The translations under genes were made by a program, and so were the position numbers. Below the pieces are notes generated by a model. It made no database searches. It was given only the letters and a program-made list of their open reading frames with translations, and was not told where the DNA came from. 64,000 nucleotides of DNA from Escherichia coli (GTDB lineage Bacteria; Pseudomonadota; Gammaproteobacteria; Enterobacterales; Enterobacteriaceae): the NCBI GenBank assembly GCA_025336685.1, contig GCA_025336685.1_4717.1; one strand, written 5' to 3'. Every line of letters begins with the position of its first letter. Within the stretch, counting starts at the first letter, position 1. Shown here piece after piece: positions 7,274-46,599 of this stretch.

Positions 7274-10200
7274 TTACATAAACTCCTCGATGATGCAAAT
7301 CCCGTCAGCGCCACGCCCGCCACGCATAACGGTTCCAGTGTAACCGTTATCGTAAGCGCCGCCGCCCGAACCTCGTGCGAGGCCGTTTGACCCACCGCCA
7401 ACAGCTGCGCGACCACCGCCACCCCAATATGACGCACCCCCACCACCACATACAGGAAATGCGCCAGCCTGACCGTCATCACCATCACCACCTGAAATGC
7501 GTATATCCCCGGTACTAGGTACACCACCACCCCCACCGCCAGTGTTTGTGACAGTTGTTTTTCCTGCGCCTTGCCCACCGGGAGCAGTCAGCAGGGATGC
7601 AAATTTACTATCCCCGCCCCTGTTTCCAACTGTTGCCCCGGAACCACCAGTGCCACCAGAACCAATTACAACAGAATAACTAGTAGCCGCTACCGTTATA
7701 ACCGAAATTACTGTTGCCCCGGCCCCACCGCCAGCACCAAAAAACGTTTCGCTGTTGGAAAAAGCCTGGCAACCACCACCGCCGCCTCCACCACCGGTTA
7801 ATATTACTCTAATCCGTTTTGTTCCTTGTGTTGGGGTGTACGTCCCTGACGATGTGAAAACACGCATGTTCAGTAAACGTCCGACATATCCACTAGAATC
7901 GGCTAAACCAAGATCTTTAGCTGCTAACGTGATATTAGCTGTGCCATCGAAAGGTTTACCGTTAATCGTGCGTGCCGTCTGCAGCTTCGTGGCCGTTGCT
8001 GCGTTTCCTGACGTATTCTGGTTTCCCGCGGCGTTAACACCTGGTAGATTGATGTTCGCACTACCGTCGAAAGACACCCCACCAATGGTGCGGGCTGTCT
8101 TCAGTTTTGTCGCCGTGGCGGCATTACCGGTCGTGTCTTGGTTACCGGTGGTGTTTACCCCAGGTAGGTTGATATTGGCTGTTCCGTTAAATGAAACACC
8201 ACCAATCGTCCTTGCTGTTTGCAACTTCGTTGCGGATGCCGCATTCCCCGTGGTGTTTTGGTTACCTGTTGCATTCACGCCTGGGATGCTATCCTTAGAT
8301 GTGTAGATCTGTGCCCATTCCGACCAGTTCGAATCGGCCGCATCACGACGTGAACGTAGGTAAGCTGGAGCGTGTGCGCCTGAGGTACCTGACCACCCAA
8401 TGAGGATTTCACCTTCACCGACCGATGAAGCCCCTTTAAGATGAATGATGTTACCATAAGCGGTGGGATATCCGTTATTGTACGCTTCATACATCTGGAT
8501 GCCCGCATTGCTGCCCTGAGCCGTGTTAGCTAAGGCCGTAACACGACCTTTGGAAGCGAGAGCGTTAATACTGAAGCTAATATCCTTAGTACCGTCAAAG
8601 GCGACCCCATTAATCTTCCGTGCTGTTTGGAGTTTCGTAGCAGTAGCCGCATTACCAGAGGTACTCTGATTACCTGCTTTGTTCACGCCCGGTAAATCAA
8701 TGTTGGCTGTTCCATCAAAGGACACACCCCCTATGGTTCTCGCTGTCTGGAGTTTTGTTGCTGAACCAGCGTTTCCAGAAGTGCTTTGATTACCTGCCGC
8801 GTTGACACCCGGTAGGTCAATGCTAGCAGAACCATCAAAAGAAACTCCACCGATCGTGATCGGTGTTTTCAATTTCGTGGCTGTCGCAGCATTACCCGTC
8901 GTATTCTGATTGCCAGCAGCATTAACACCAGGTAATGCGATATCGGTCGTACCATCGAACGCAACACCACCGACTTTACGGGCGGTCTGTAGCTTGGTCG
9001 CTGTAGCCGCGTTGCCGCTGGTATTTTGCGTGCCTGCTTTATTTACGCCAGGCAAATCAATGTTCGCAGTACCATCAAAAGAAACACCCCCGATGGTTCT
9101 CGCGGTCTCAAGTTTGGTTGCGCTTCCTGCGTTTCCGCTGGTGCTTTGATTTCCCGCTGCATCAACACCTGGTAGATTGATGCTGGCCGAACCATCGAAA
9201 CTCACACCACCGATAGTAACAGCGGTTTTCAACTTCGTCGCCGTTGCTGCGTTACCGGTTGTATTTTGATTGCCTGTCGCATTAACGCCCGGTAATGCAA
9301 TATCCGCTGTTCCGTCAAAGGCAACGCCACCGATTCTACGTGCAGTTTGTAGCTTGGTTGCACTAGCAGCGTTACCGCTGGTATTCTGGGTGCCAGCTTT
9401 GTTAACACCGGGGAGATCGATATTAGCAGAACCATCGAAGCTGACGCCACCTATCGTTCTTGCAGTATCGAGTTTAGCTGCTGTGGCTGCATTATTACCC
9501 ACTTTCAGCCAATCATCCCATGGACCATCCTGGCCGTTCCATGATGCCGTTAAACTACGTACGTAAATATTGCCGGTACGTACAGTGTAACGTTGCGTTC
9601 CACCGAATTGTCCGGCAGGGAGCACTTCAAGGTAACCTGCAGCATTTGCTTCAGGGAAATTGTGGGCGACGTCCGCGTTCGTTGATACTGGTTTAGACCA
9701 AATACCCACAGACACTTCAACCGGACCGTAAGTATTCAGATTTGCGTCGGTGGGGAGCTGTCCTCGAAAACGTTGGAATTGTGTCGCCGATAACCCCAAC
9801 GTTGTTTGCATGCTTTCAATGCTGGATTGCTGAAGTAACGTCCGTGCTGTCGATGTAATCACGGTAAGCGCAACTTTATTAACACCGGTGAAATACGGGA
9901 GTTTGTCTGCTGATGTCGCTAAACCTGAAAAGGCGGTCAGTAATGCGTTAAGGGGCTGCTTCCCAGCTAACGCATTTGTTACCGTCGTTGCGAAATTAGG
10001 ATCGCTTCCTATAGCTCGAGCCAGCTTATTAAGCGTATTTAGCGTCGCTGGTGACGAGTCGATCAGCGCCGTGATCGCACGCATCACAAATTCCGTGTTG
10101 GCTATCTGTCGACTGCTATTGTTAACTGCTGCGGTGGGCGCTGCTGGCGTACCAGTGAATACAGGGCTATTAAGATCCGCCTTGAGGGCGATGAGACGTT

Positions 10201-11149
10201 TAAGCGCTTCAACATCGACTTTCAGGTTTTCCCATCCGATGAGAGAACCACCACTGTTGGCATGGTAACGGTTGTACCAGAAGTCACCGTTAACGCCTAA
10301 AAAGAATATTCCCTTCTCTTCGTTTTGTGGGCCGGAACTATTTCGTGATGCGCTGATATATTTGATTTTAATAATACCGTTAAACACCACTCCTGGGATT
10401 ATTTCGCTGCTTCCAGCTAACTGTGATACTTGGTAAATCCCCGGGGTCGCAGCTTTAACCCATGTTAAGAATTCTGTTACTCCGGCGTTACCACTGAAAT
10501 TCTTAACGTCGGTAAGTATCGCACCATAACCGAACATACCGGGCAGAGCAACTCGTCCGTTGGTACGGTCACGAATATTTGATGCGATTACAGGTAGCTG
10601 TTTACGAACATTATTAACCGCCTTAGGTGTGGCCGATTTTGTCTCATCGTCGCTATCGATGGCGTTGCTCAGGATGGTCAGCCCTCGCTTAGCAGTAGTT
10701 GCATCAGGAAGAAATGCGTTATCCAACACCTTAAGCTGTATTGCACTCGTATTACTAACAACGACATGCATCTGACAGTTAAGAACGCTGGTTGCGCCTT
10801 CGGTAGGCATAGGCTTATATCTTTCTGGTGCACTGCAGACGGCAATCAGAACACCCTTGTCGTCGTACAGACCGATCTCACGTACCCAGAACCCACCTTG
10901 ACTGGCAGGAATAATACCCTCAACGACAATCCTGGTTGTACTATCGCCATCCGCATGGATATTAGAAACTTCCCCACGATAAACTTCGTGAACAAGCGCT
11001 GTTTGGCTGGCGGTCGGGGTTGGTGTCGAGCCGTTACCATCACCAACGGCAAAGTGTGTGATTTTTAGTTTCTCACCGTCGGGAAGTAACGCAGCGGTGA
11101 TACGTTCTGCTCCTTTATCGGTAACTACCGTTTTATATGCTGTACTCAT
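7274..11149 (-). CDS. long tail fibre protein (about 1291 aa from internal Met; ORF track 1318 aa)
   Basis: About 12 degenerate ~34-aa repeats (TARTIGGVSFDGTANIDLPGVNxAGNQNTSGNAATATKLQ) typical of phage fibres; Gly-rich C-terminal domain; likely start MSTAYKTVV at 11147-11149. Confidence 0.8.
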   Translation of the reverse strand: MSTAYKTVVTDKGAERITAALLPDGEKLKITHFAVGDGNGSTPTPTASQTALVHEVYRGEVSNIHADGDSTTRIVVEGIIPASQGGFWVREIGLYDDKGVLIAVCSAPERYKPMPTEGATSVLNCQMHVVVSNTSAIQLKVLDNAFLPDATTAKRGLTILSNAIDSDDETKSATPKAVNNVRKQLPVIASNIRDRTNGRVALPGMFGYGAILTDVKNFSGNAGVTEFLTWVKAATPGIYQVSQLAGSSEIIPGVVFNGIIKIKYISASRNSSGPQNEEKGIFFLGVNGDFWYNRYHANSGGSLIGWENLKVDVEALKRLIALKADLNSPVFTGTPAAPTAAVNNSSRQIANTEFVMRAITALIDSSPATLNTLNKLARAIGSDPNFATTVTNALAGKQPLNALLTAFSGLATSADKLPYFTGVNKVALTVITSTARTLLQQSSIESMQTTLGLSATQFQRFRGQLPTDANLNTYGPVEVSVGIWSKPVSTNADVAHNFPEANAAGYLEVLPAGQFGGTQRYTVRTGNIYVRSLTASWNGQDGPWDDWLKVGNNAATAAKLDTARTIGGVSFDGSANIDLPGVNKAGTQNTSGNAASATKLQTARRIGGVAFDGTADIALPGVNATGNQNTTGNAATATKLKTAVTIGGVSFDGSASINLPGVDAAGNQSTSGNAGSATKLETARTIGGVSFDGTANIDLPGVNKAGTQNTSGNAATATKLQTARKVGGVAFDGTTDIALPGVNAAGNQNTTGNAATATKLKTPITIGGVSFDGSASIDLPGVNAAGNQSTSGNAGSATKLQTARTIGGVSFDGTANIDLPGVNKAGNQSTSGNAATATKLQTARKINGVAFDGTKDISFSINALASKGRVTALANTAQGSNAGIQMYEAYNNGYPTAYGNIIHLKGASSVGEGEILIGWSGTSGAHAPAYLRSRRDAADSNWSEWAQIYTSKDSIPGVNATGNQNTTGNAASATKLQTARTIGGVSFNGTANINLPGVNTTGNQDTTGNAATATKLKTARTIGGVSFDGSANINLPGVNAAGNQNTSGNAATATKLQTARTINGKPFDGTANITLAAKDLGLADSSGYVGRLLNMRVFTSSGTYTPTQGTKRIRVILTGGGGGGGGCQAFSNSETFFGAGGGAGATVISVITVAATSYSVVIGSGGTGGSGATVGNRGGDSKFASLLTAPGGQGAGKTTVTNTGGGGGGVPSTGDIRISGGDGDDGQAGAFPVCGGGGASYWGGGGRAAVGGGSNGLARGSGGGAYDNGYTGTVMRGGRGADGICIIEEFM
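7905..8285 (-). repeat. coding tandem repeats, block B (about 3 units) inside the long fibre gene
   Basis: Same ~34-aa unit after a ~100-aa non-repeat spacer. Confidence 0.55.
8575..9485 (-). repeat. coding tandem repeats, block A (about 9 units of ~102 bp) inside the long fibre gene
   Basis: Repeated GGVSFDG...LPGVN...TGNAATATKL units read from the translation; DNA copies are diverged. Confidence 0.6.
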
Positions 11150-11156
11150 GGTGTTT

Positions 11157-11684
11157 TTATCCTGGATAAATAGTGATGATATCACCAATGACCGTTGTGG
11201 CACCGGCGTAAAGATGAGCCGGAGATACATCGTGTTGGTTTGTCACGGTAAGATCCAATCGACCACGCCAAACCATGGAGGTATTCGCGATGGGGATAGA
11301 AATCTTTTTGGATATATCGTCACGAAAATCAATAACAGTGGCAAGGGTAACTGTATCAAAGTCAACGTCGGGGTCAAAGACGAACCCGTATTGATCTGAA
11401 ATCGCCCGAATAATCGCGTGTATAGTTGTTGTCTTAACAGACTCTAAAACGATTTTTATTGGTATTCCTAGAAATGCCTTCGCAATATCGCGTCGAGCGT
11501 AAACGATAAAACTTTCACCGTTCCACCTTGTTCCTTCATTTGCTGTGACGATCACTTTTGCCCTGTTAGCACCAGAACTTCCATCCAAGACTAATGTAAG
11601 ATCGGAGCTGTTGAATACGCTACTGTTACGTCTGTTTATCAACGACGTCAGTTCGTCTTTCCATGGCGGGTAAAGTGAACACAT
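11157..11684 (-). CDS. free-standing anchor-domain protein (about 175 aa) upstream of the long fibre
   Basis: Paralog of the N-terminal domain of the 870/590/503-aa proteins (YARRDIAKAFLGIPIKI); start MCSLYPPWKDEL with GGAGGAGGG SD. Confidence 0.5.
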   Translation of the reverse strand: MCSLYPPWKDELTSLINRRNSSVFNSSDLTLVLDGSSGANRAKVIVTANEGTRWNGESFIVYARRDIAKAFLGIPIKIVLESVKTTTIHAIIRAISDQYGFVFDPDVDFDTVTLATVIDFRDDISKKISIPIANTSMVWRGRLDLTVTNQHDVSPAHLYAGATTVIGDIITIYPG

Positions 11685-11797
11685 ATGTGCACCCTCCTCC
11701 AACATAACCAGATTAAATATATATTTCTTAAACGTGGGACACGATTCGAGATAAACGTTAACGGTCTTAACGACCGCATAAAATTCCGCGCATATTA

Positions 11798-11829
11798 CCC
11801 CTCTATCCCGACAAAGCGAGATAGAGGGG
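11798..11829 (-). terminator. intrinsic terminator hairpin (10-bp stem)
   Basis: CCCCTCTATC/GATAGAGGGG perfect stem with 12-nt loop, 12 nt downstream of the 590-aa gene stop. Confidence 0.6.
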
Positions 11830-11841
11830 AGGATAATACGA

Positions 11842-13596
11842 TTATGCTGCTACATATCCAGGCCAACGTTCTCTTGGCCAGTTTGTTGCGCCCTGTCCAA
11901 CGTTGTCCTTACCAGAAATTACGTTACTTACATCCCATCCACTCAGATCCTGATTGAACGCGGTGTTTTCGCGCATCATGAGATCGATCTTACGTAGTGA
12001 ACGGGTATTCCAGCCGGAAATGTCTTGGTTGAATGCTGTATTGTAGGCAAACATGTTAGACACGCTTTGTAACTTCGATGTGTTCCAACCACTGATGTCG
12101 CTATTGAACGACATGCTCGAGAACATGCTGCTCGCATCAACAAGGCTGTCGGTTTTCCAATTAACCAGTTTATCACCATCAAGCGCAGCGCTGCTGCTGA
12201 ACATAAAACTCATGTCGTTAACTTTGGACACATCCCATTTATCCAACCCGTTACCCACGAACGCGGGACAGGACGAGAACATATAACTCATATTAGTAAC
12301 CCGACTCACATTCCATTTACTGAAGTCGAGGTTAAGTTTCTGACACCCTAAGAAGGTTTTAGACATGTTGGTGATACGACTAACATCCCACTCTTGGATG
12401 TTGGGGTCGTTAAGTGTCGTTAAATAGTTGAACAATGTCGCTAACGACGTCCATTTCTGTGGAATCTGGTTTGGTACCGTACGAAGCGATGCGAGGTTGT
12501 TGGTTGACGGAGAGCAGAACATGCCGTTATCCCAATTTACGATCTCCGTAATTTTGGACCCTTTGATCGTCTGAGTGACGTTACCATCTTTCACCATACC
12601 TGTAGCGACGATGGTATATTCACCGGTGTCCGCATAATCGTGGGAGTAGGAGTTGTTGCTTGAGGTCTCCGTTACTTTATTCCCATCACCCCAATCGATA
12701 TTGACCTTATCCCATCCACCTAGATAGAACTGTACTTTGCCTCCGGTGGCTTTTAGGATGTATTTACCCCCATTGTCTGTATAATAACAGACGACCATCG
12801 AACCGTACAGATTACCTATCTGCCAATCATCCTTTTGCGTTATTGCGATTTGCGCCGCACCACGCTGTACGAAGAGTACCGTACGATTCTCGGCAGTCTG
12901 TAATGTGGTTATTGCCTGAGCCTTATCGTCCTCGCTAATTTCGCCAGACGCCACCAAAGCGCTTAACATCCTTTCGAAGTATTCGATCGGTAACTCGGTT
13001 CCAACAGACTTATCAACAGACGATACGGCAAGATCACCCAATGCTGCGGTGGTAGCCAACGCCAATGAACCCTTGGTCATATCTGTTTCTTGGATGTAAT
13101 GCAGTCCTGTAAGCTGGTACGCTTGAATAATAGTAATCAGGTTCAGCGTATCGTTAACGACCTGTACCTGTAAATTCCCGGACCATACATAACTGCTTTC
13201 AGCAATCGGTAGTTCGACCGACTGAATACCCGATGTTTCAAAGGTGATCTTCTTATTAAGATCGGTTTCCAGGAAATCAACCGCGAGGTCGAAATTCATG
13301 CCGTACTTTTCAGCGATGGAATCTACGATATTCTTGAAAGCAACATCGGTGCTTACGATAAAACGTAACGGAATTCCTGTAAACGCTTTAGCGATATCTC
13401 GACGAACATACGTAAGCGATTGTTCGAAGAAATAGGGACTGTTATCTCCAGGCTTGATGGTTACCTGACACGCTTCAGGATATTCAGCTGGGATGAACGA
13501 TTCGAATTTAACATCGGATTCCTTCAACGAAAGCTTGTTATTTCGGTTCACTAACGCCAGAAGATCGGCTTTCCATCCGGGGTAAACTGTAGACAT
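11842..13596 (-). CDS. receptor-binding protein: anchor domain fused to DUF285/BspA-like repeat domain
   Basis: N-terminal anchor paralog; C-terminal repeats WNVSRVTNMSYMFSSC / WDVSKVNDMSFMFSS / WNTSKLQSVSNMF match the DUF285 repeat signature; start MSTVYPGW with GGAG SD. Confidence 0.6.
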   Translation of the reverse strand: MSTVYPGWKADLLALVNRNNKLSLKESDVKFESFIPAEYPEACQVTIKPGDNSPYFFEQSLTYVRRDIAKAFTGIPLRFIVSTDVAFKNIVDSIAEKYGMNFDLAVDFLETDLNKKITFETSGIQSVELPIAESSYVWSGNLQVQVVNDTLNLITIIQAYQLTGLHYIQETDMTKGSLALATTAALGDLAVSSVDKSVGTELPIEYFERMLSALVASGEISEDDKAQAITTLQTAENRTVLFVQRGAAQIAITQKDDWQIGNLYGSMVVCYYTDNGGKYILKATGGKVQFYLGGWDKVNIDWGDGNKVTETSSNNSYSHDYADTGEYTIVATGMVKDGNVTQTIKGSKITEIVNWDNGMFCSPSTNNLASLRTVPNQIPQKWTSLATLFNYLTTLNDPNIQEWDVSRITNMSKTFLGCQKLNLDFSKWNVSRVTNMSYMFSSCPAFVGNGLDKWDVSKVNDMSFMFSSSAALDGDKLVNWKTDSLVDASSMFSSMSFNSDISGWNTSKLQSVSNMFAYNTAFNQDISGWNTRSLRKIDLMMRENTAFNQDLSGWDVSNVISGKDNVGQGATNWPRERWPGYVAA

Positions 13597-40810: not shown

Positions 40811-41107
40811 TTATACCGCCACCTTAGCCTTGATAGCAGGGTGTGATTGATAACCGACGAATACAAAGTCTTCGTAGCGGTAATCCGTAATACTTTCCGG
40901 TTTACGTACGATTGTTAGCTTCGGTAATGGATACGGCTCACGACTAAGTTGCTCTTTAACCTGTTCGAAATGGTTGTGATAGATGTGGCAATCCCCACCC
41001 GTCCACACGAACTCACCAACGTCCATATTCAACTGCTGGGCAAGCATATGCGTTAGCAACGAATATGATGCGATGTTGAATGGAACACCTAAAAATACGT
41101 CAGCACT
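40811..41107 (-). CDS. thyA: thymidylate synthase, exon 2 (C-terminal 98 aa)
   Basis: Begins [15 protein letters not shown] and ends PAIKAKVAV, matching the ThyA C-terminus; joins in frame to exon 1 (...LSCQLYQR|SADVFLG). Confidence 0.85.
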
Positions 41108-42214
41108 CATTCTGTTCAGATAAGGTCGTTAATCTTATCCCGTTAAAATAACAGCTGTAGATTATCTCTACAGTTCGGACTATATCACGATCTCCTTCCC
41201 TGGAGACCCCTCCCGTTTCACACCCACTTGGGCGTTACGCTACTCATCACTATTTTTATTCATCCGTTTAGTGCTTTCGCTAGTCTCTGGGCATTCTTCT
41301 ACAAGTCTGTACGATTCAAATTTGGGATTTTTACTACCTAATCGATAAAGTATCGTTGCCGGAACAACACCTAACTGCCGAGCCGCCTCAGTTAAAGAGA
41401 CATACTGAATTCCGTCGATTTCCACTTTACGTGCTGTAGTGGGAATCTTCCCCTTATTCACTTCGGCAAGACGACGTCGCGTCTCTTCTGTATGGTGTCG
41501 CCCATAGAACGAATTCTTTTCCCCGGTTCGGGTTTTTGCAAACTCTGATATCTTTCGACGAGTTTCTTCGCCAACCTTTACACCTAGGCGTCTAGCCCTA
41601 GACGCCGCGATGTTTTCGGGAGTGCATACTTTTCGCCGAATGAGTTCACGTGTTTCCGGTGTATGTGTTCGACCATACATCCCGTTACGTTCGCCCGGAT
41701 TGCCATGAACAGCGCGCCTTTGTTCAGGCGACATCGAAGCGAATCGATCGTTAACGACTTTAGTTATTTTCTCGATTATGTCATCGCGACGTGGGTTTCT
41801 CGATAAATTATCACCGCCTAAAGCACCTTTCCCGATATTGAGAGATGCTTCTTCCGGGATGCTATCGATATACACCTGCTCTAAAGCGTATGCCTCTTCT
41901 CGGGTACTACATTCATCGATATCCACGGTGATAAATCCACCACGGTTATGGATATCTTGTAATTTAGCGTTGTGGTGAGAACCATTACGCAAAGCCGATC
42001 TGTGCGTAGCTAACCGCTGATTAATGTTCCCGGTGCTACCAACATAGACATCGCCGTCTTGAGTACATAACCGATATACTACTGGTTTTTTCATACTGCC
42101 TCCTTTAAAAGAGAGACAGACTTGTAGAAGGTTAGCAACGGATTAGCCCGTAGGCTTTCCCGTTTTAAGGAGGTTATTCGACGTAGCTCACGCTACGAAG
42201 GCGCAGTTGCGTTT
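41108..42214 (-). mobile_element. group I self-splicing intron (1107 nt) interrupting thyA, carrying a homing endonuclease gene
   Basis: Exon 1 ends in U (CAGCGU), intron ends in G (AAUG) before exon 2; P7 strands CCAGAGACUAG (plus 41279-41289) and GAUAUAGUCC (41177-41186); P9 hairpin CUGUAGA-GAUAA-UCUACAG (41155-41173); P8-like hairpin GGUCUCC...GGAGAUC. Confidence 0.8.
41240..42094 (-). CDS. intron-encoded GIY-YIG homing endonuclease, I-TevI-like
   Basis: N-terminal VYRL...DVYVGST GIY-YIG module with conserved Arg/Glu; repeated NGMYGRTHTPETR / NSFYGRHHTEETR NUMOD3-like motifs; C-terminal HTH; AAAGGAGG SD inside the intron. Confidence 0.8.
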   Translation of the reverse strand: MKKPVVYRLCTQDGDVYVGSTGNINQRLATHRSALRNGSHHNAKLQDIHNRGGFITVDIDECSTREEAYALEQVYIDSIPEEASLNIGKGALGGDNLSRNPRRDDIIEKITKVVNDRFASMSPEQRRAVHGNPGERNGMYGRTHTPETRELIRRKVCTPENIAASRARRLGVKVGEETRRKISEFAKTRTGEKNSFYGRHHTEETRRRLAEVNKGKIPTTARKVEIDGIQYVSLTEAARQLGVVPATILYRLGSKNPKFESYRLVEECPETSESTKRMNKNSDE

Positions 42215-42937
42215 ACGCTGGTAAAGCTGACAGGATAAAGCACGTGTTGGTACGTTATGCGCATTCAACCAAAGTTCTGTTTCACTGCGTCGTACATCAT
42301 CCGTAACCCACTGGGTTCTTAATACGTCGTTGCGCTGGACATAATCAACGCGTTCATCGAGTGTGAGTTCGTGGGTATAGAACTGATAGAATGAATGGCA
42401 CGGAGCGAGATGCATATCGTCTAAATCACCTACGTTCCATGCGCTAACGATGATCCGTCGAGAATCAGGATCTTCTTTAAGCTGACGCATCACGTTTGCA
42501 ATCTGATCGTGATGTCTAACATACACGAGGTGTTTTAGCATACCGTCATTAAGAATGCCGAAATATTCATAGCCGCGTTGCATCAACTCACGAGTACGTT
42601 CTGTATCGTGCGGAACAACCACTTTATAGTCGATCCATTCCCGCCATTGTTTGCCGTAAATCGGTCCTAGATTCCCTTCTTCGTCAGCCCATTCATTCCA
42701 GATACGAACACCGTTATCTTGAAGATAAGCAACGTTTGTGTCGCCGTTAAGAAACCAGAGCAGTTCGTGGATAACGCTCTTAAGGTGAATCTTCTTGGTG
42801 GTTACCAGCGGAAATCCTTTCTTCAAGTCAAAACGCATCTGACGTCCGAATACGGAACGGGTCCCGGTCCCCGTGCGGTCGGCTTTATCGCGACCGTTAT
42901 CCATGATGTCTTGCAAAAGGTCCAAATACTGTTTCAT
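42215..42937 (-). CDS. thyA: thymidylate synthase, exon 1 (N-terminal 241 aa)
   Basis: [12 protein letters not shown]...DRTGTGT...[12 protein letters not shown]...[23 protein letters not shown]...LSCQLYQR: ThyA motifs including the catalytic Cys loop; the ORF-track frame runs on into the intron. Confidence 0.85.
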
Positions 42938-43146
42938 TTTAATCCTCTAAGTGTTTCAAGTAGTTCCTGAAATTTATAACGATATTTAGAATCACTTAAC
43001 GTGTAGCAGCAACCACGTAACACGTTATACGCGTAATCAGCTTGTAAACCACGAACCTTCGGATCCAATGATAGATTCAATGACGCGTCATCAAAAATCC
43101 ACGCTTCAATGTTCTTCTTAGATTCCTTCGTTAACATCGTTTTCAC
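42934..43146 (-). CDS. hypothetical protein (70 aa)
   Basis: ORF overlapping the thyA start by 4 nt. Confidence 0.35.
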
Positions 43147-43268
43147 CTCGTCGTAAAAGTAAATAGAGTTTTGTCGAGACGCCCTAATTACTTACAACGT
43201 AGGTTCTCCTGGCTTCAGAGAATTCTTAAAATCCGTTAGTTTTGATAGATAGGATAAGACGGCATAAA

Positions 43269-43289
43269 AGCCTCCCATTACGGGAGGCT
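43269..43289 (-). terminator. intrinsic terminator hairpin
   Basis: AGCCTCCC/GGGAGGCT 8-bp stem, loop ATTAC, followed on the minus strand by UUUUAUGCCG. Confidence 0.65.
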
Positions 43290-43301
43290 CCATCAATCAA
43301 C

Positions 43302-43850
43302 TTACTTCACGAGAACAGTGAATTCGAGAACGTAAATAGTCTCGTCATCCATCGGATTTGTCGTGGTATAACCAACAAAGCAATAACCCATATCCGCGAT
43401 AAAATCGCTAAGTTTATCAACATCGCCTACATTGATACGATCATCAACAGACAGACGACATTTACGGGTTATACCACATCCGCGAGGAACACCGGATAAC
43501 ACGGATAGGAAATGCGCGATCCGGTTATTGGTTGCGAACTGTGCATAATCGCCGTAGCGTTTAAGGTCCTTCATCGCAACCTCGACAGCCATACGACGAC
43601 CAGGCGCTACGTATTCAGTGTACGCATACGCTGCGATCGTACGACGATCTTCAGTCAGGTAAGTATTCCCATCAGGATGGTAGCTCTCGATTGTTCCGTC
43701 TTCATAGGTGACGTTTACAACAGGTGCACCGTACTCGTCGCGACCGAATTCAATCTTGCATTTATCCGAAAGCGGTAGAATCGTACACGGTTTTGCGTTG
43801 TTCTCATCGGGGAGATTATAACCGCTCATCATTTTCAAAAAGATAGACAT
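43302..43850 (-). CDS. hypothetical protein (182 aa), paralog A
   Basis: Shares MS(I/V)xxK(M/V)M...NNAKP...IEFxRD...TIAxYAY...VK with the next gene; GAGGT SD. Confidence 0.45.
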   Translation of the reverse strand: MSIFLKMMSGYNLPDENNAKPCTILPLSDKCKIEFGRDEYGAPVVNVTYEDGTIESYHPDGNTYLTEDRRTIAAYAYTEYVAPGRRMAVEVAMKDLKRYGDYAQFATNNRIAHFLSVLSGVPRGCGITRKCRLSVDDRINVGDVDKLSDFIADMGYCFVGYTTTNPMDDETIYVLEFTVLVK

Positions 43851-43936
43851 AATAGAACCTCATGATAATAGATAATAGAAATGATAGATAGTACAACAAA
43901 TTGAGGAGGTATTATCCCACCCCCTCGTAGGGATTA

Positions 43937-44470
43937 CTACTTAACGATCGCGATGATTTTGCCGCTCGCACCGGCGTAATATGCTGTTAATTTACCAGTA
44001 AACAACTCTTGTAAAAGACGATTTACATGACTAACAAAGTTAGGGTTGTCTGATTTTACAAACTCGATATTGCGCGTTTGTTTTATATCACGATCGATTA
44101 AGCGTATTTCCAACAACGCACAAATAAGGCGATCGTCAAGTTTACCACTTGTATCCAACACTTCCCCATACGTCGTAGCACGGACGTCCGCATACATACG
44201 GTCAACATCATCCTTCCCAAAACCACAGGAATAGGCATACGTTGCGATGGTATTACCATTGTCCATCACATAAACGTTACCGCCTGGGTAATCGATAAAT
44301 CGTTGATCCTTATCGCCATGAGCGACGAACTCCAGTGTCGGTCTACCTAGTGAATCACGATTGAATTCGATTGTGGTCAAACGGTCAGGTACCACATGCA
44401 ACGTAAACGGTTTCGCATTGTTACGATCGCTAGTATCACAGTTAGCCATTACTTTTACAATAACACTCAT
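43937..44470 (-). CDS. hypothetical protein (177 aa), paralog B
   Basis: Paralog of 43302..43850. Confidence 0.45.
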   Translation of the reverse strand: MSVIVKVMANCDTSDRNNAKPFTLHVVPDRLTTIEFNRDSLGRPTLEFVAHGDKDQRFIDYPGGNVYVMDNGNTIATYAYSCGFGKDDVDRMYADVRATTYGEVLDTSGKLDDRLICALLEIRLIDRDIKQTRNIEFVKSDNPNFVSHVNRLLQELFTGKLTAYYAGASGKIIAIVK

Positions 44471-44544
44471 GTTTTATTCCTTAGTAGTCCTAGTAGTAGT
44501 ATTGAGGAATTTCACCTCATTAGATAGTCTATTTTGGTAATGTT

Positions 44545-44844
44545 TTACTGAAACAGGACATTAAATTCGACAAGATACCCATCGGATCTATCACCACGAT
44601 AACGGTTGCAGAAAACGCCGAATTTCATCAAGAACTCACATAACTCTTCGGCTTTGTATAACGGAATACGATTTTCGTCGAACAGAGGGCACTTATGGCT
44701 AACCCGCTCCGACGAATCAACGCAACACAAATAAAGAAGGAACCGAACGATAGCTCGGTTCTTAGTGAAGCTCTCGAATTCACCTGCGGTTCTGAACTCA
44801 TCGAGGAGCTTTGTCGTTTTCTTCAATCGTTCACGATCAAGCAT
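44545..44844 (-). CDS. hypothetical protein (99 aa)
   Basis: ORF; C-terminal EFNVLFQ loosely resembles the C-termini of the two preceding paralogs. Confidence 0.4.
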   Translation of the reverse strand: MLDRERLKKTTKLLDEFRTAGEFESFTKNRAIVRFLLYLCCVDSSERVSHKCPLFDENRIPLYKAEELCEFLMKFGVFCNRYRGDRSDGYLVEFNVLFQ

Positions 44845-44866
44845 GTTAACCTCAATACGAACATAA

Positions 44867-44898
44867 CCCTCCTCCTTCCCTGATGGGTTGGAGGAGGG
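44867..44898 (-). terminator. intrinsic terminator hairpin, loop-inverted copy of the 1122-1153 element
   Basis: Same 9-bp CCCTCCTCC/GGAGGAGGG stem and flanks (cataa ... aatatgct) as 1122-1153, but the 14-nt loop is the reverse complement. Confidence 0.6.
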
Positions 44899-44907
44899 AA
44901 TATGCTA

Positions 44908-45222
44908 TTATTCTGCTTTAGGCGATGAACCGTTCTTTTTGAAGTCGGATTCGTATTTCACGTTAGAATCGAGAACCTCACGAACGGTTTTATCCGTACA
45001 ACCACGGGCGATGTATGCATTAAGATCGTCGCGTAATTTACGCATTGTTGTTTTATCCGCATCAGAAACATCTGACTTGGTAAGACGGAACGCAATCGCA
45101 TCACGAATTTTATTCAACATTGCTGGGTTATTACGCTGTTCTGCAAATACCGCTTTGATGAACTTATCGCTATCTTTCGAAGCGATGGCTGCATCAAGAA
45201 TCTCAATATGCTTTTCAGACAT
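44908..45222 (-). CDS. hypothetical protein (104 aa)
   Basis: ORF, no motif. Confidence 0.4.
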   Translation of the reverse strand: MSEKHIEILDAAIASKDSDKFIKAVFAEQRNNPAMLNKIRDAIAFRLTKSDVSDADKTTMRKLRDDLNAYIARGCTDKTVREVLDSNVKYESDFKKNGSSPKAE

Positions 45223-45273
45223 CTTCTTTCCTTTATTAAACGATCATCGTCATATTCATTGCGCAGGGTGCTA

Positions 45274-46599
45274 TCACTTCAGAAGCTTAGACATCGCCAT
45301 GCTTCGCGCTAACGCAACATCATACGCATCCATGATCGCGTCACCGATAGCGGTATGACGGATCAGCGGAATACCCATGTCTGGATACTCTTTGGTGCCT
45401 AAGATGGATACCGGTTTGTCTTGATACGCAGCAATCATCGAACGGATATCCTGAACCTGGTTATAACGACAAACTGGCTTAAAGCCCGCTTTACGGAACC
45501 AATGCTCTAATTGAGGCCAATCTGTTTCACCGCGAGCAAGATAATAGAAGGTATCCTTACCGTAGTATTCAGTCATTTTGTCACGAATACTGTTGACGAA
45601 CGCATTTACTTCGGTGATGGCTTCTTTATAACCCATTGCCTTACAATGTTGAAAACAATAGTCGCGCGCTTCCTTTGGTGCTTTGGTTTGCCACCATTCT
45701 ACTGTTGATTCACTGATACGACCACCGTCAGCGATTTGACCATGAACGTCAGGGAAGATATCTATACGCGGACCGTTAACAATGGATTCTGGATTAGCCA
45801 GATCGAAGAACACGATACCGATTTCCAGCAATACTCCATTCTTTTCCAGACTAAGGTTTTCAACATCTAAACAAAATGCAGGCTTCTCTACCGCTAACGG
45901 CTCGAACGAATGGTTGCTGGTATCCGATTCGGTTTTAAGTTCGACGACAACCGGATCGGTATCCGTAGGTTTCAGTTCTACTACAGCATCATCGAGTCCC
46001 GATAACGAAAAATAGTCTTCGAAGAAATCGGGTATCGTCATGCCATGCAAATTGATATCGCAATCTTCCAACCATTGCTTCAACTGGTGCTCACCGGCAT
46101 GAATCGCTAAACGACATGGTCCGGAACGATCATCTAGCGCTGCATCGATCCAGAAGAAAGCGCGTATAAGTAAGTAAGGATTGTACTCCGCGATGATTTC
46201 TTGGCTAGCCGAGAAATCGTACACCATTAGTTGTGTTATTCCCTTACGAGTGTTATACGGATCAACTTTCAATCGACGCACTATTTCTTCTACGAATTCC
46301 AACGCACGCGTGTACGATGTGGACCCACCTTGTTCATACGAACATATACCCGTCAAAAGTTCCTTATAGGACGCATATGGAACCATAGGCGATAATTTGT
46401 ACGACAGTTCAGTATTGTAATTATCGCATAATTTCTTCGGGGCGATAGCATCCTGTATCGCTGTAATAAACGCCGGTCCATCAATATCAAACAACCATCC
46501 TTGACGCCGGTATGCAGTGTATCGTAATAACGCACCGATAACTGCCTGGGGCGGTGTATATTCTTTTCCGTTAATTTCAAACAGTAGTTTGCTCATCAT
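45274..46599 (-). CDS. putative DnaQ-like (DEDDh) 3'-5' exonuclease domain protein (441 aa)
   Basis: C-terminal half has Exo I-like FCLDVENL (D-x-E) and Exo III-like RHTAIGDAIMDAYD (H-x4-D); N-terminal half unknown. Confidence 0.55.
   Translation of the reverse strand: MMSKLLFEINGKEYTPPQAVIGALLRYTAYRRQGWLFDIDGPAFITAIQDAIAPKKLCDNYNTELSYKLSPMVPYASYKELLTGICSYEQGGSTSYTRALEFVEEIVRRLKVDPYNTRKGITQLMVYDFSASQEIIAEYNPYLLIRAFFWIDAALDDRSGPCRLAIHAGEHQLKQWLEDCDINLHGMTIPDFFEDYFSLSGLDDAVVELKPTDTDPVVVELKTESDTSNHSFEPLAVEKPAFCLDVENLSLEKNGVLLEIGIVFFDLANPESIVNGPRIDIFPDVHGQIADGGRISESTVEWWQTKAPKEARDYCFQHCKAMGYKEAITEVNAFVNSIRDKMTEYYGKDTFYYLARGETDWPQLEHWFRKAGFKPVCRYNQVQDIRSMIAAYQDKPVSILGTKEYPDMGIPLIRHTAIGDAIMDAYDVALARSMAMSKLLK

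Follow-up and report, generated by a model that had tools for sequence, protein, structure and literature searches.

Three adjacent genes, here called A, B and C, lie on the minus strand of a 64,000-nucleotide (nt) stretch of DNA from an Escherichia coli assembly (GCA_025336685.1, contig GCA_025336685.1_4717.1; the whole stretch is referred to as the window) and form a domain-shuffled cluster. As judged from sequence comparison, A combines an N-terminal domain (N-domain), which it shares with B, and a C-terminal domain (C-domain), which it shares with C; B carries the N-domain followed by a different tail, and C is the C-domain alone. This architecture is well supported and, taken by itself, we regard it as highly probable. 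It is likewise well supported that all copies of the cluster are functional and that they are expressed early in Escherichia phage vB_EcoM_Goslar, to which positions 43000-45400 of the window are 92.3% identical at the nucleotide level; the window belongs to a jumbo phage of the Goslar type, a member of the nucleus-forming Chimalliviridae. The wider reading, which includes the architecture, is that the cluster may encode dispensable, early, cytoplasmic accessory proteins, in which a binding handle is joined to swappable C-terminal modules; to this reading we give about the same weight as to all its alternatives combined.

The open reading frames (ORFs) in question are the following:

43302..43850, minus strand: gene A, 182 amino acids (aa), Goslar gp143; N-domain at aa 1-80 (nt 43611-43850), C-domain at aa 91-182 (nt 43305-43580)
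43937..44470, minus strand: gene B, 177 aa, Goslar gp144; N-domain at aa 1-81 (nt 44228-44470), followed by the C-terminal half (nt 43940-44227)
44545..44844, minus strand: gene C, 99 aa, the C-terminal module of A encoded as a separate gene

All three ORFs had been delineated in a first-pass annotation of the window, and the motifs quoted there, MS(I/V)xxK(M/V)M, NNAKP, IEFxRD, TIAxYAY and a terminal VK, are present. Like all genes of the neighbourhood, they are read from the minus strand, and transcription runs from C (44844-44545) through B (44470-43937) to A (43850-43302); the 99-aa gene, which had been described as following the other two, is the first in the direction of transcription and not the last.

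Modular similarity of A, B and C

Among all ORFs of the window of at least 40 aa, A, B and C match just one another (phmmer, 1e-11 and 2e-5). Pairwise alignment, named in the first-pass annotation as the test of its proposed paralogy, places the similarity beyond chance and at the same time confines it to modules: A and B share 36% identity over residues 1-81 only (BLASTP E=4e-14), residues 93-182 of A share 24% identity with residues 14-99 of C (BLASTP E=7e-8), and no similarity between B and C was found by BLASTP. Comparison by hhalign of profiles built from orthologues gives the same picture, with a probability of 98.4% for the N-domains of A and B and of 97.4% (E=1.3e-11) for the C-domain of A and the C family. 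The loose resemblance of the end of C (LVEFNVLFQ) to the end of A (VLEFTVLVK), which had drawn attention to the third gene, thus belongs to a significant relationship.

For the C-terminal half of B, hhalign yields 0.1% against the C-domain of A or the C family, an enlarged profile also gave no support, and sequence relatives were detected nowhere beyond the B orthologues. When the corresponding half of X, a fourth paralogue found in related phages (see below), is included, the values against the C-domain of A range from 0.1 to 1.9%; on visual inspection, the likely helices and strands follow one another in a similar sequence. The proposed tandem paralogue pair therefore holds for the N-terminal ~80 residues, but not for the C-terminal halves, in which no similarity is detectable. 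Since these halves are unrelated by sequence, the terminal VK common to A and B is no sign of homology and loses its standing as a shared paralogue feature.

Integrity of the three genes

Each of the three genes is preceded by a ribosome-binding site (GAGG or AAGGA, 6-8 nt before the ATG). Ratios of nonsynonymous to synonymous substitution (dN/dS), calculated pairwise by the Nei-Gojobori method for the genes of the window against five related genomes, are 0.11-0.16 for A, 0.09-0.13 for B and 0.11-0.18 for C, at dS values of up to 2 (up to 1.7 for C), and are comparable to those obtained in the same way for thyA and for the capsid-latch gene, which flank the cluster.

The status of C deserves particular attention, as this gene had been taken for a possible truncated third copy. 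It is indeed related to A, but it is not decayed: in addition to its low dN/dS, it has its own ribosome-binding site (GAGG, 6 nt upstream of the ATG), 97 of its 99 residues are identical in Goslar, and both frame and start are kept in relatives down to 57% identity. C is therefore an intact and conserved gene under purifying selection rather than a truncated remnant. The GenBank record of Goslar does not contain C; instead, a 75-aa gene, gp145, is called there on the plus strand (site of conflict: window 44545-44883; 7549-7926 in the locus L001). As the opposite-strand ORF has just 62 aa in the window, compared to 75 aa in Goslar, the gp145 annotation is most likely wrong. The predicted isoelectric points (pI) of A, B and C are 5.0, 5.9 and 7.6, respectively, and a hydrophobic segment is found in none of them; all three are small, soluble proteins of acidic to neutral character.

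A phage family defined by the N-domain

An exhaustive search of 1.84 billion representative proteins with a profile of A, B and C (E<1e-3) returned 148 representative clusters. Except for the groups of A, B, C and X, the matches are confined to profile positions 1-80; the C-domain of A retrieved Goslar-like sequences only. The N-domain thus defines a large family that occurs almost only in phages. It is located at the extreme N-terminus of its proteins: nearly all of the 148 matches begin at residue 1-6, with residue 1-4 as the usual starting point, and those of A and B at residue 1. More than half of the matches are free-standing domains of less than 100 aa, typically ~80 aa, the longest member has 481 aa, and 57 C-terminal extensions fall into 36 groups without BLAST similarity between groups. 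The median pI of the family is 4.9.

Residues K6, M8, S9, D15, K20, G61, N62, Y64, G69 and T71 are invariant or nearly so, and K6, M8, D15, K20, G61-N62-x-Y64 and T71, all present in A and B, are at least 90% conserved in alignments of 75 and 52 sequences. The family corresponds to PHROG 10337, 10807 and 3909, all listed as "unknown function": B matches phrog_10337 (1.6e-7) and phrog_10807 (4.8e-6), A matches phrog_10337 (1.4e-3), and phrog_10337 is matched by 73 of the 75 aligned N-domain members. Scans of A, B, C, X, 75 N-domains and 52 long members with Pfam, NCBIfam and PADLOC revealed no meaningful family. In particular, neither a MuF/SPP1-gp7 nor a recognised toxin Pfam family was found at E<0.01 in the 52 longer members, A, B and C, and the PADLOC defence-system models did not match A, B, C, X or the DUF7448 neighbour described below.

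Among isolated phages, the N-domain is found in Goslar, Erwinia Agricanvirus, Proteus phage 10, Vibrio phage R16F, the Pseudomonas phages 201phi2-1 (gp34), Phabio and Viktualia, ~45-kb Acinetobacter Obolenskvirus myophages, and Caulobacter phiCbK-like and Bertelyvirus phages; in all of them except Goslar the gene is single-copy. A scan of one genome per bacterial species (185,579 genomes) for the motif GNVYVMN, which was derived from an 8-sequence alignment and covers part of the family only, gave a single match, on a contig of a metagenome-assembled genome.

Predicted structure

In the AlphaFold2 (AF2) model of A, which has a mean predicted local distance difference test score (pLDDT) of 81.8, seven strands (residues 3-75) are followed by helices at 83-94, 99-106 and 109-118 and then by a beta-alpha-beta-beta element. 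The N-domain alone, modelled by AF2 from the 75-sequence alignment, is predicted to be all-beta with a pLDDT of 94. Foldseek searches of the PDB with the full A and N-domain models gave nothing at E<0.001, the best N-domain match reaching E=0.3 with a template modelling (TM) score of 0.34; the weak top matches, phiKZ neck chains and the ATP-synthase epsilon subunit, were rejected (TM 0.13-0.2). Sequence searches of the PDB with two profiles and with B gave nothing significant, and structure matches in BFVD were uncharacterised phage homologues only. The predicted fold of the N-domain is thus without a confident known analogue. The same general fold and sequence searches of the PDB revealed nothing significant by way of likeness to anti-defence proteins, the BFVD matches all being uncharacterised.

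A hypervariable island between the capsid-latch gene and thyA

The distribution of the genes in relatives, the examination of which had been proposed, reveals a small hypervariable island between the latch gene and thyA, where close relatives have either no N-domain gene or 1, 2 or 3 of them. The order is C-B-A in the window and in Goslar, C-B-A-DUF7448 in the related locus L005, and C-X-B-A-DUF7448, with or without two small genes, in L003, L006 and L007; L038 has one A-like gene and DUF7448. X, the fourth paralogue (200/201 aa), is inserted between C and B. It is similar to A over most of its sequence (phmmer 1e-17), and its N-domain is recognised by hhalign at 98.6%. The DUF7448 gene, which is found neither in the window nor in Goslar, encodes a protein of 287-294 aa directly downstream of A:

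L003, 5281-6165: DUF7448 protein gene
L006, 4658-5542: DUF7448 protein gene
L038, 5664-6527: DUF7448 protein gene

L002 differs by a clean deletion of 1,301 bp (window 44743-43443), which removes B and joins codon 33 of C in frame to codon 137 of A; the genes are therefore dispensable, at least for this metagenomic phage. The alleles have evidently been swapped by recombination, as indicated by a mosaic of dS values: relative to Goslar, dS is 0.6 for A and 0.12-0.14 for B and C, and relative to L003, it is ~2 for B and 0.16 for C.

Genomic context of N-domain genes in other phages

In 201phi2-1, Proteus phage 10 and CcrSwift, the N-domain gene stands alone in an orientation opposite to that of its neighbours, and in ~45-kb Acinetobacter and metagenomic phages it adjoins terminase/packaging or lysis modules. 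Two metagenomic phages place it next to genes of other kinds: in one, it lies between the RNA-repair genes RtcB and RlaP, its start codon overlapping the RtcB stop codon, and in the other it directly follows a NADAR gene. These positions are, if weakly, suggestive of accessory ("moron") genes.

L023 3995-4324 and L029 3998-4300: free-standing N-domain genes of metagenomic phages, in RtcB/RlaP and NADAR contexts

An HNH gene is found directly beside the N-domain gene in 201phi2-1, Vibrio phage R16F and L011, and two genes off in Special G. As a general rule, HNH adjacency was rejected: among 28 neighbours of IMG/VR loci, no HNH family was detected at E<0.001. In L011, a ~51-kb metagenomic phage whose N-domain gene is free-standing, the large terminase gene is split into Terminase_6N and Terminase_6C by an HNH_3 gene (10744-13596), which suggests an intron or intein.

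Expression and virion content

Transcripts of Goslar at 30 min, with and without knockdown of ChmA, are given in Supplementary Table 2 of the EPI-vesicle preprint (doi 10.1101/2023.09.20.558163). Upon knockdown, the log2 fold changes (log2FC) were +0.11, +0.22 and -0.10 for gp143 and +0.14, +0.15 and -0.05 for gp144, whereas structural genes, e.g., that of the major capsid protein, dropped by 3-7 log2 units; the class insensitive to knockdown was equated by the authors with early, vesicle-stage transcription (doi 10.1101/2023.09.20.558163). The label "early", attached to the genes in the first-pass annotation, thus gains indirect support, since the mRNAs of both remain unchanged (log2FC ~0) when nucleus formation is blocked, as opposed to -3 to -7 for late genes. 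The mRNA of gp146, which has been modelled as the capsid "latch" with 55 copies, is not reduced by the block either (log2FC +0.1 to +0.4), unlike that of other structural genes.

Both proteins are made, as three peptides of gp143 and two of gp144 are listed in the liquid chromatography-tandem mass spectrometry tables of a 2026 preprint on the structure of Goslar (doi 10.64898/2026.04.21.720040). Copy numbers estimated from mass spectrometry (MS) of virions are 4-10 for gp143 and 1-3 for gp144, far below those of chimallin and PhuZ, two non-virion proteins that co-purify (~85-270), and hence make no case for a structural role. In 201phi2-1, gp34 is without the note "identified by mass spectrometry" that is present on its virion neighbours. 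No mention of a function of Goslar gp143 or gp144 was found in the literature; the text matches to "gp143/gp144" all concern phiKZ proteins.

Neighbouring genes, signals and distribution of the phage

The features surrounding the cluster are as follows:

43266..43291 (approximate), minus strand: hairpin followed by a T-run downstream of A (AGCCTCCC..GGGAGGCTTTT), read from the sequence
43903..43926, minus strand: terminator-like hairpin between B and A, found by pattern scan; the Goslar equivalent is annotated as a terminator
44867..44898, no strand assigned: 32-nt palindrome between the capsid-latch gene and C, seen in the sequence and as a reverse-orientation blastn self-match
44908-45222, minus strand: capsid-latch gene, gp146 orthologue, 104 aa
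45274-46599, minus strand: exonuclease gene, gp147 orthologue, 441 aa

The hairpin at 43266..43291 is absent from the pattern-scan list, and the corresponding site in Goslar is annotated as a terminator. In the region 42900-45400 of the window, no sigma-70-like promoter was found, compared to 6.7 +/- 2.5 expected from shuffled sequences, and terminator-like hairpins are enriched (6 versus 1.9 expected), which fits transcription by phage RNA polymerases. The octamer ACTATCTA, located upstream of A and of B, was considered as a promoter motif and rejected as a general motif, because just 2 copies occur in 64 kb, with 1.4 expected by chance.

The exonuclease gene is mosaic: its Rv2179c-like product is 58% identical to that of Goslar at the amino acid level (dS ~1) and 84% identical to those of L006 and L007, the C-terminal exonuclease domain being the conserved part. 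On the other side of the cluster, thyA (40811-42937, minus strand; gp141 in Goslar) is interrupted by an insertion of ~1.1 kb between exon 1 (~42215-42937) and exon 2 (~40811-41107). This insertion encodes an I-TevI-like homing endonuclease (41240-42094) with a GIY-YIG domain, NUMOD3 and an I-TevI DNA-binding domain, 1.2 kb downstream of the cluster; an Rfam scan did not find a group I intron at E<=0.1. In Goslar, thyA is uninterrupted and the 29 nt around the insertion point are diverged (SCMLLARSQDTVLG, compared to the canonical SCQLYQR|SADVFLG in the window), as would be expected of an endonuclease-resistant allele.

One draft assembly of E. coli has a 241-kb contig that encodes a protein 100% identical to B, and Goslar-like genomes occur as 235-245-kb contigs in many drafts labelled Salmonella, E. 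coli, Shigella or Enterobacter, with zero matches in complete RefSeq E. coli genomes and PLSDB plasmids. Carrier-state phage or contamination of isolate sequencing is suggested by this pattern.

Functional interpretation and alternatives

The architecture of the cluster could be put to use in the following manner: The N-domain would serve as a common handle that binds one conserved partner, a host or phage macromolecule, across phages infecting Proteobacteria, and the variable C-terminal modules would contribute specificity or effector activity. New variants of this repertoire would arise as genes are duplicated in tandem and their domains shuffled, most plausibly for host takeover or counter-defence, and the proteins would presumably act in the cytoplasm. 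A role in host interaction, as proposed from the local duplication in the first-pass annotation, is consistent with the hypervariable island, the dispensability of the genes and the moron-like positions of their relatives. Taken alone, the division into handle and effector is a tentative model, which we would sooner expect to fail than to hold. A bolder version, which we consider unlikely, holds that the N-domain has an undescribed fold and is a universal adaptor of lytic Proteobacteria phages that docks onto a single, highly conserved target, either a machine of the bacterial cell or a component of its immunity. Free-standing N-domains would inhibit this target, fused ones would deliver diverse effectors to it, and the C-X-B-A array of Goslar-like phages would represent a rapidly reshuffled early battery for counter-defence or host takeover.

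Several points weigh against the interpretation as accessory proteins with a handle and exchangeable effectors. The model is drawn solely from architecture; most members of the family consist of the N-domain alone, so that the domain may hold the whole function and the fusions may be secondary; and the dN/dS values of the whole genes bear no sign of the positive selection expected of an arms race. NADAR or RtcB/RlaP neighbours, moreover, occur in just two of about 17 loci, and the presence of gp146 in the same RNA class means that this class alone does not exclude a structural role.

In a different explanation, the N-domain is itself functional as a "sponge" for a ligand or signal or as an inhibitor of one host protein; the tails would be decorations, and additional copies would raise dosage or ligand range. 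The predominance of free-standing proteins of less than 100 aa, the nearly invariant polar cluster of K6, D15, K20, N62, Y64 and T71, the acidity of the domain and the spread of the family across unrelated phage groups in moron-like positions all agree with such a function. About one-third of the family, however, has long C-terminal extensions, which reach 400 aa, differ widely and are never found on the other side of the domain, and no likeness to a known sponge or inhibitor fold or family emerged from the searches. We regard this explanation as quite unlikely.

Alternatively, the proteins could be low-copy virion cargo, comparable to the products of the T4 internal-protein locus or to MuF-linked cargo: by means of the N-domain as a packaging handle, variable C-terminal effectors would enter the capsid and be injected together with the DNA. 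Peptides of gp143 and gp144 are indeed found in purified Goslar virions, the cluster adjoins the capsid-latch gene, the stand-alone gene abuts terminase, portal or head-morphogenesis genes in the ~45-kb Acinetobacter phages and several metagenomic phages, and the combination of a shared N-terminus, a variable remainder and a plastic locus recalls the internal protein (IP) genes of T4. Yet 4-10 and 1-3 copies are fewer than those of chimallin and PhuZ and resemble the level of a homing-endonuclease protein, both proteins are neither part of the cryo-EM model nor discussed as virion proteins, gp34 of 201phi2-1 lacks the virion-MS note of its neighbours, and transcription falls into the early, nucleus-independent class. 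We consider a function as cargo improbable.

The genes might also be selfish or near-neutral passengers of homing endonucleases or recombination hot spots, of no benefit to the phage. The HNH genes that adjoin an N-domain gene in 201phi2-1, Vibrio R16F and L011 or lie two genes away from it in Special G, the I-TevI-like endonuclease downstream in the window, and the widely varying copy number with natural deletion variants would be accounted for in this way. Purifying selection on all copies over dS values of up to 2, a sequence signature kept across alpha- and gamma-proteobacterial phages and the HNH-free neighbourhoods of the IMG/VR loci argue to the contrary, and we regard such a passenger role as highly improbable. 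That the similarity is due to chance or that some of the ORFs are not genes, to which only the omission of C by the Goslar annotators in favour of an opposite-strand gene lends colour, is practically excluded by E-values of 4e-14 to 1e-11, dN/dS well under 1 for each of the three genes, peptides of the A and B orthologues and the varying length of the opposite-strand ORF (62 versus 75 aa).

Jumbo phages that form a nucleus have become a major model system, and no function has been assigned to the majority of their early genes. The analysis corrects the Goslar annotation, in which one gene is missing and one is placed on the wrong strand, and defines a domain family without a Pfam model that spans chimalliviruses, phiCbK-like, Acinetobacter and Vibrio phages and whose fold, predicted with confidence, has no match in the PDB. 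The cluster illustrates the evolution of a small accessory island in which genes are duplicated, domains split off and segments deleted, and its natural variants with 0, 1, 2 and 3 copies can be taken directly into experiments. Should the N-domain turn out to act as a common targeting handle, it could serve to recognise and classify effector modules within the "dark matter" of phages.

Comparison with known systems

The closest counterparts of A and B are the proteins of PHROG 10337, 10807 and 3909, e.g., gp201 of Erwinia phage Special G, gp34 of 201phi2-1 and gp67 of Acinetobacter phage WCHABP12. They have the same ~80-aa N-terminal beta domain with the signature K-x-M-S...D...K...G-N-x-Y...G-K-T, always at the N-terminus as in A and B. 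In contrast to the cluster, they are encoded by single-copy genes, and their C-terminal parts are unrelated to A, B and C.

Among beta-meander and PH-like domains, an all-beta, up-and-down arrangement is likewise found, and weak sequence matches to the CPAP G-box (E=0.057) and, in one member, to MORN_2 (E=0.068) were obtained. The CPAP G-box, matched by hmmsearch, was rejected, as was a classification as PH-like, Rpn13 PRU or MORN, the PRU and PH comparisons giving TM scores of ~0.33 at root-mean-square deviations of 5-12 Å, none of them significant.

Two known systems combine a constant N-terminus with a variable remainder: (i) the hyperplastic IP locus of T4-type phages, which varies between close relatives, consists of small, dispensable genes arranged in tandem, with an N-terminal element in common and differences in the remainder; the common element is a capsid-targeting peptide of ~10 residues, which is cleaved off, and the proteins are packaged in hundreds of copies. 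In the cluster, by contrast, the shared element is a folded domain of 80 residues, and the virion signal is a trace of 1-10 copies. (ii) MuF-linked toxins and tail-fibre anchors consist of a conserved N-terminal anchor and a variable C-terminus. Like these modular proteins, the N-domain is joined to many unrelated tails, and some of its stand-alone genes lie beside head-morphogenesis genes; unlike them, its proteins are small, belong in Goslar to the early, nucleus-independent class and contain no detectable MuF, toxin or fibre domain. Jumbo phages often carry hypothetical proteins in tandem families; at present, the C-B-A array is an ordinary, well-behaved paralogue cluster.

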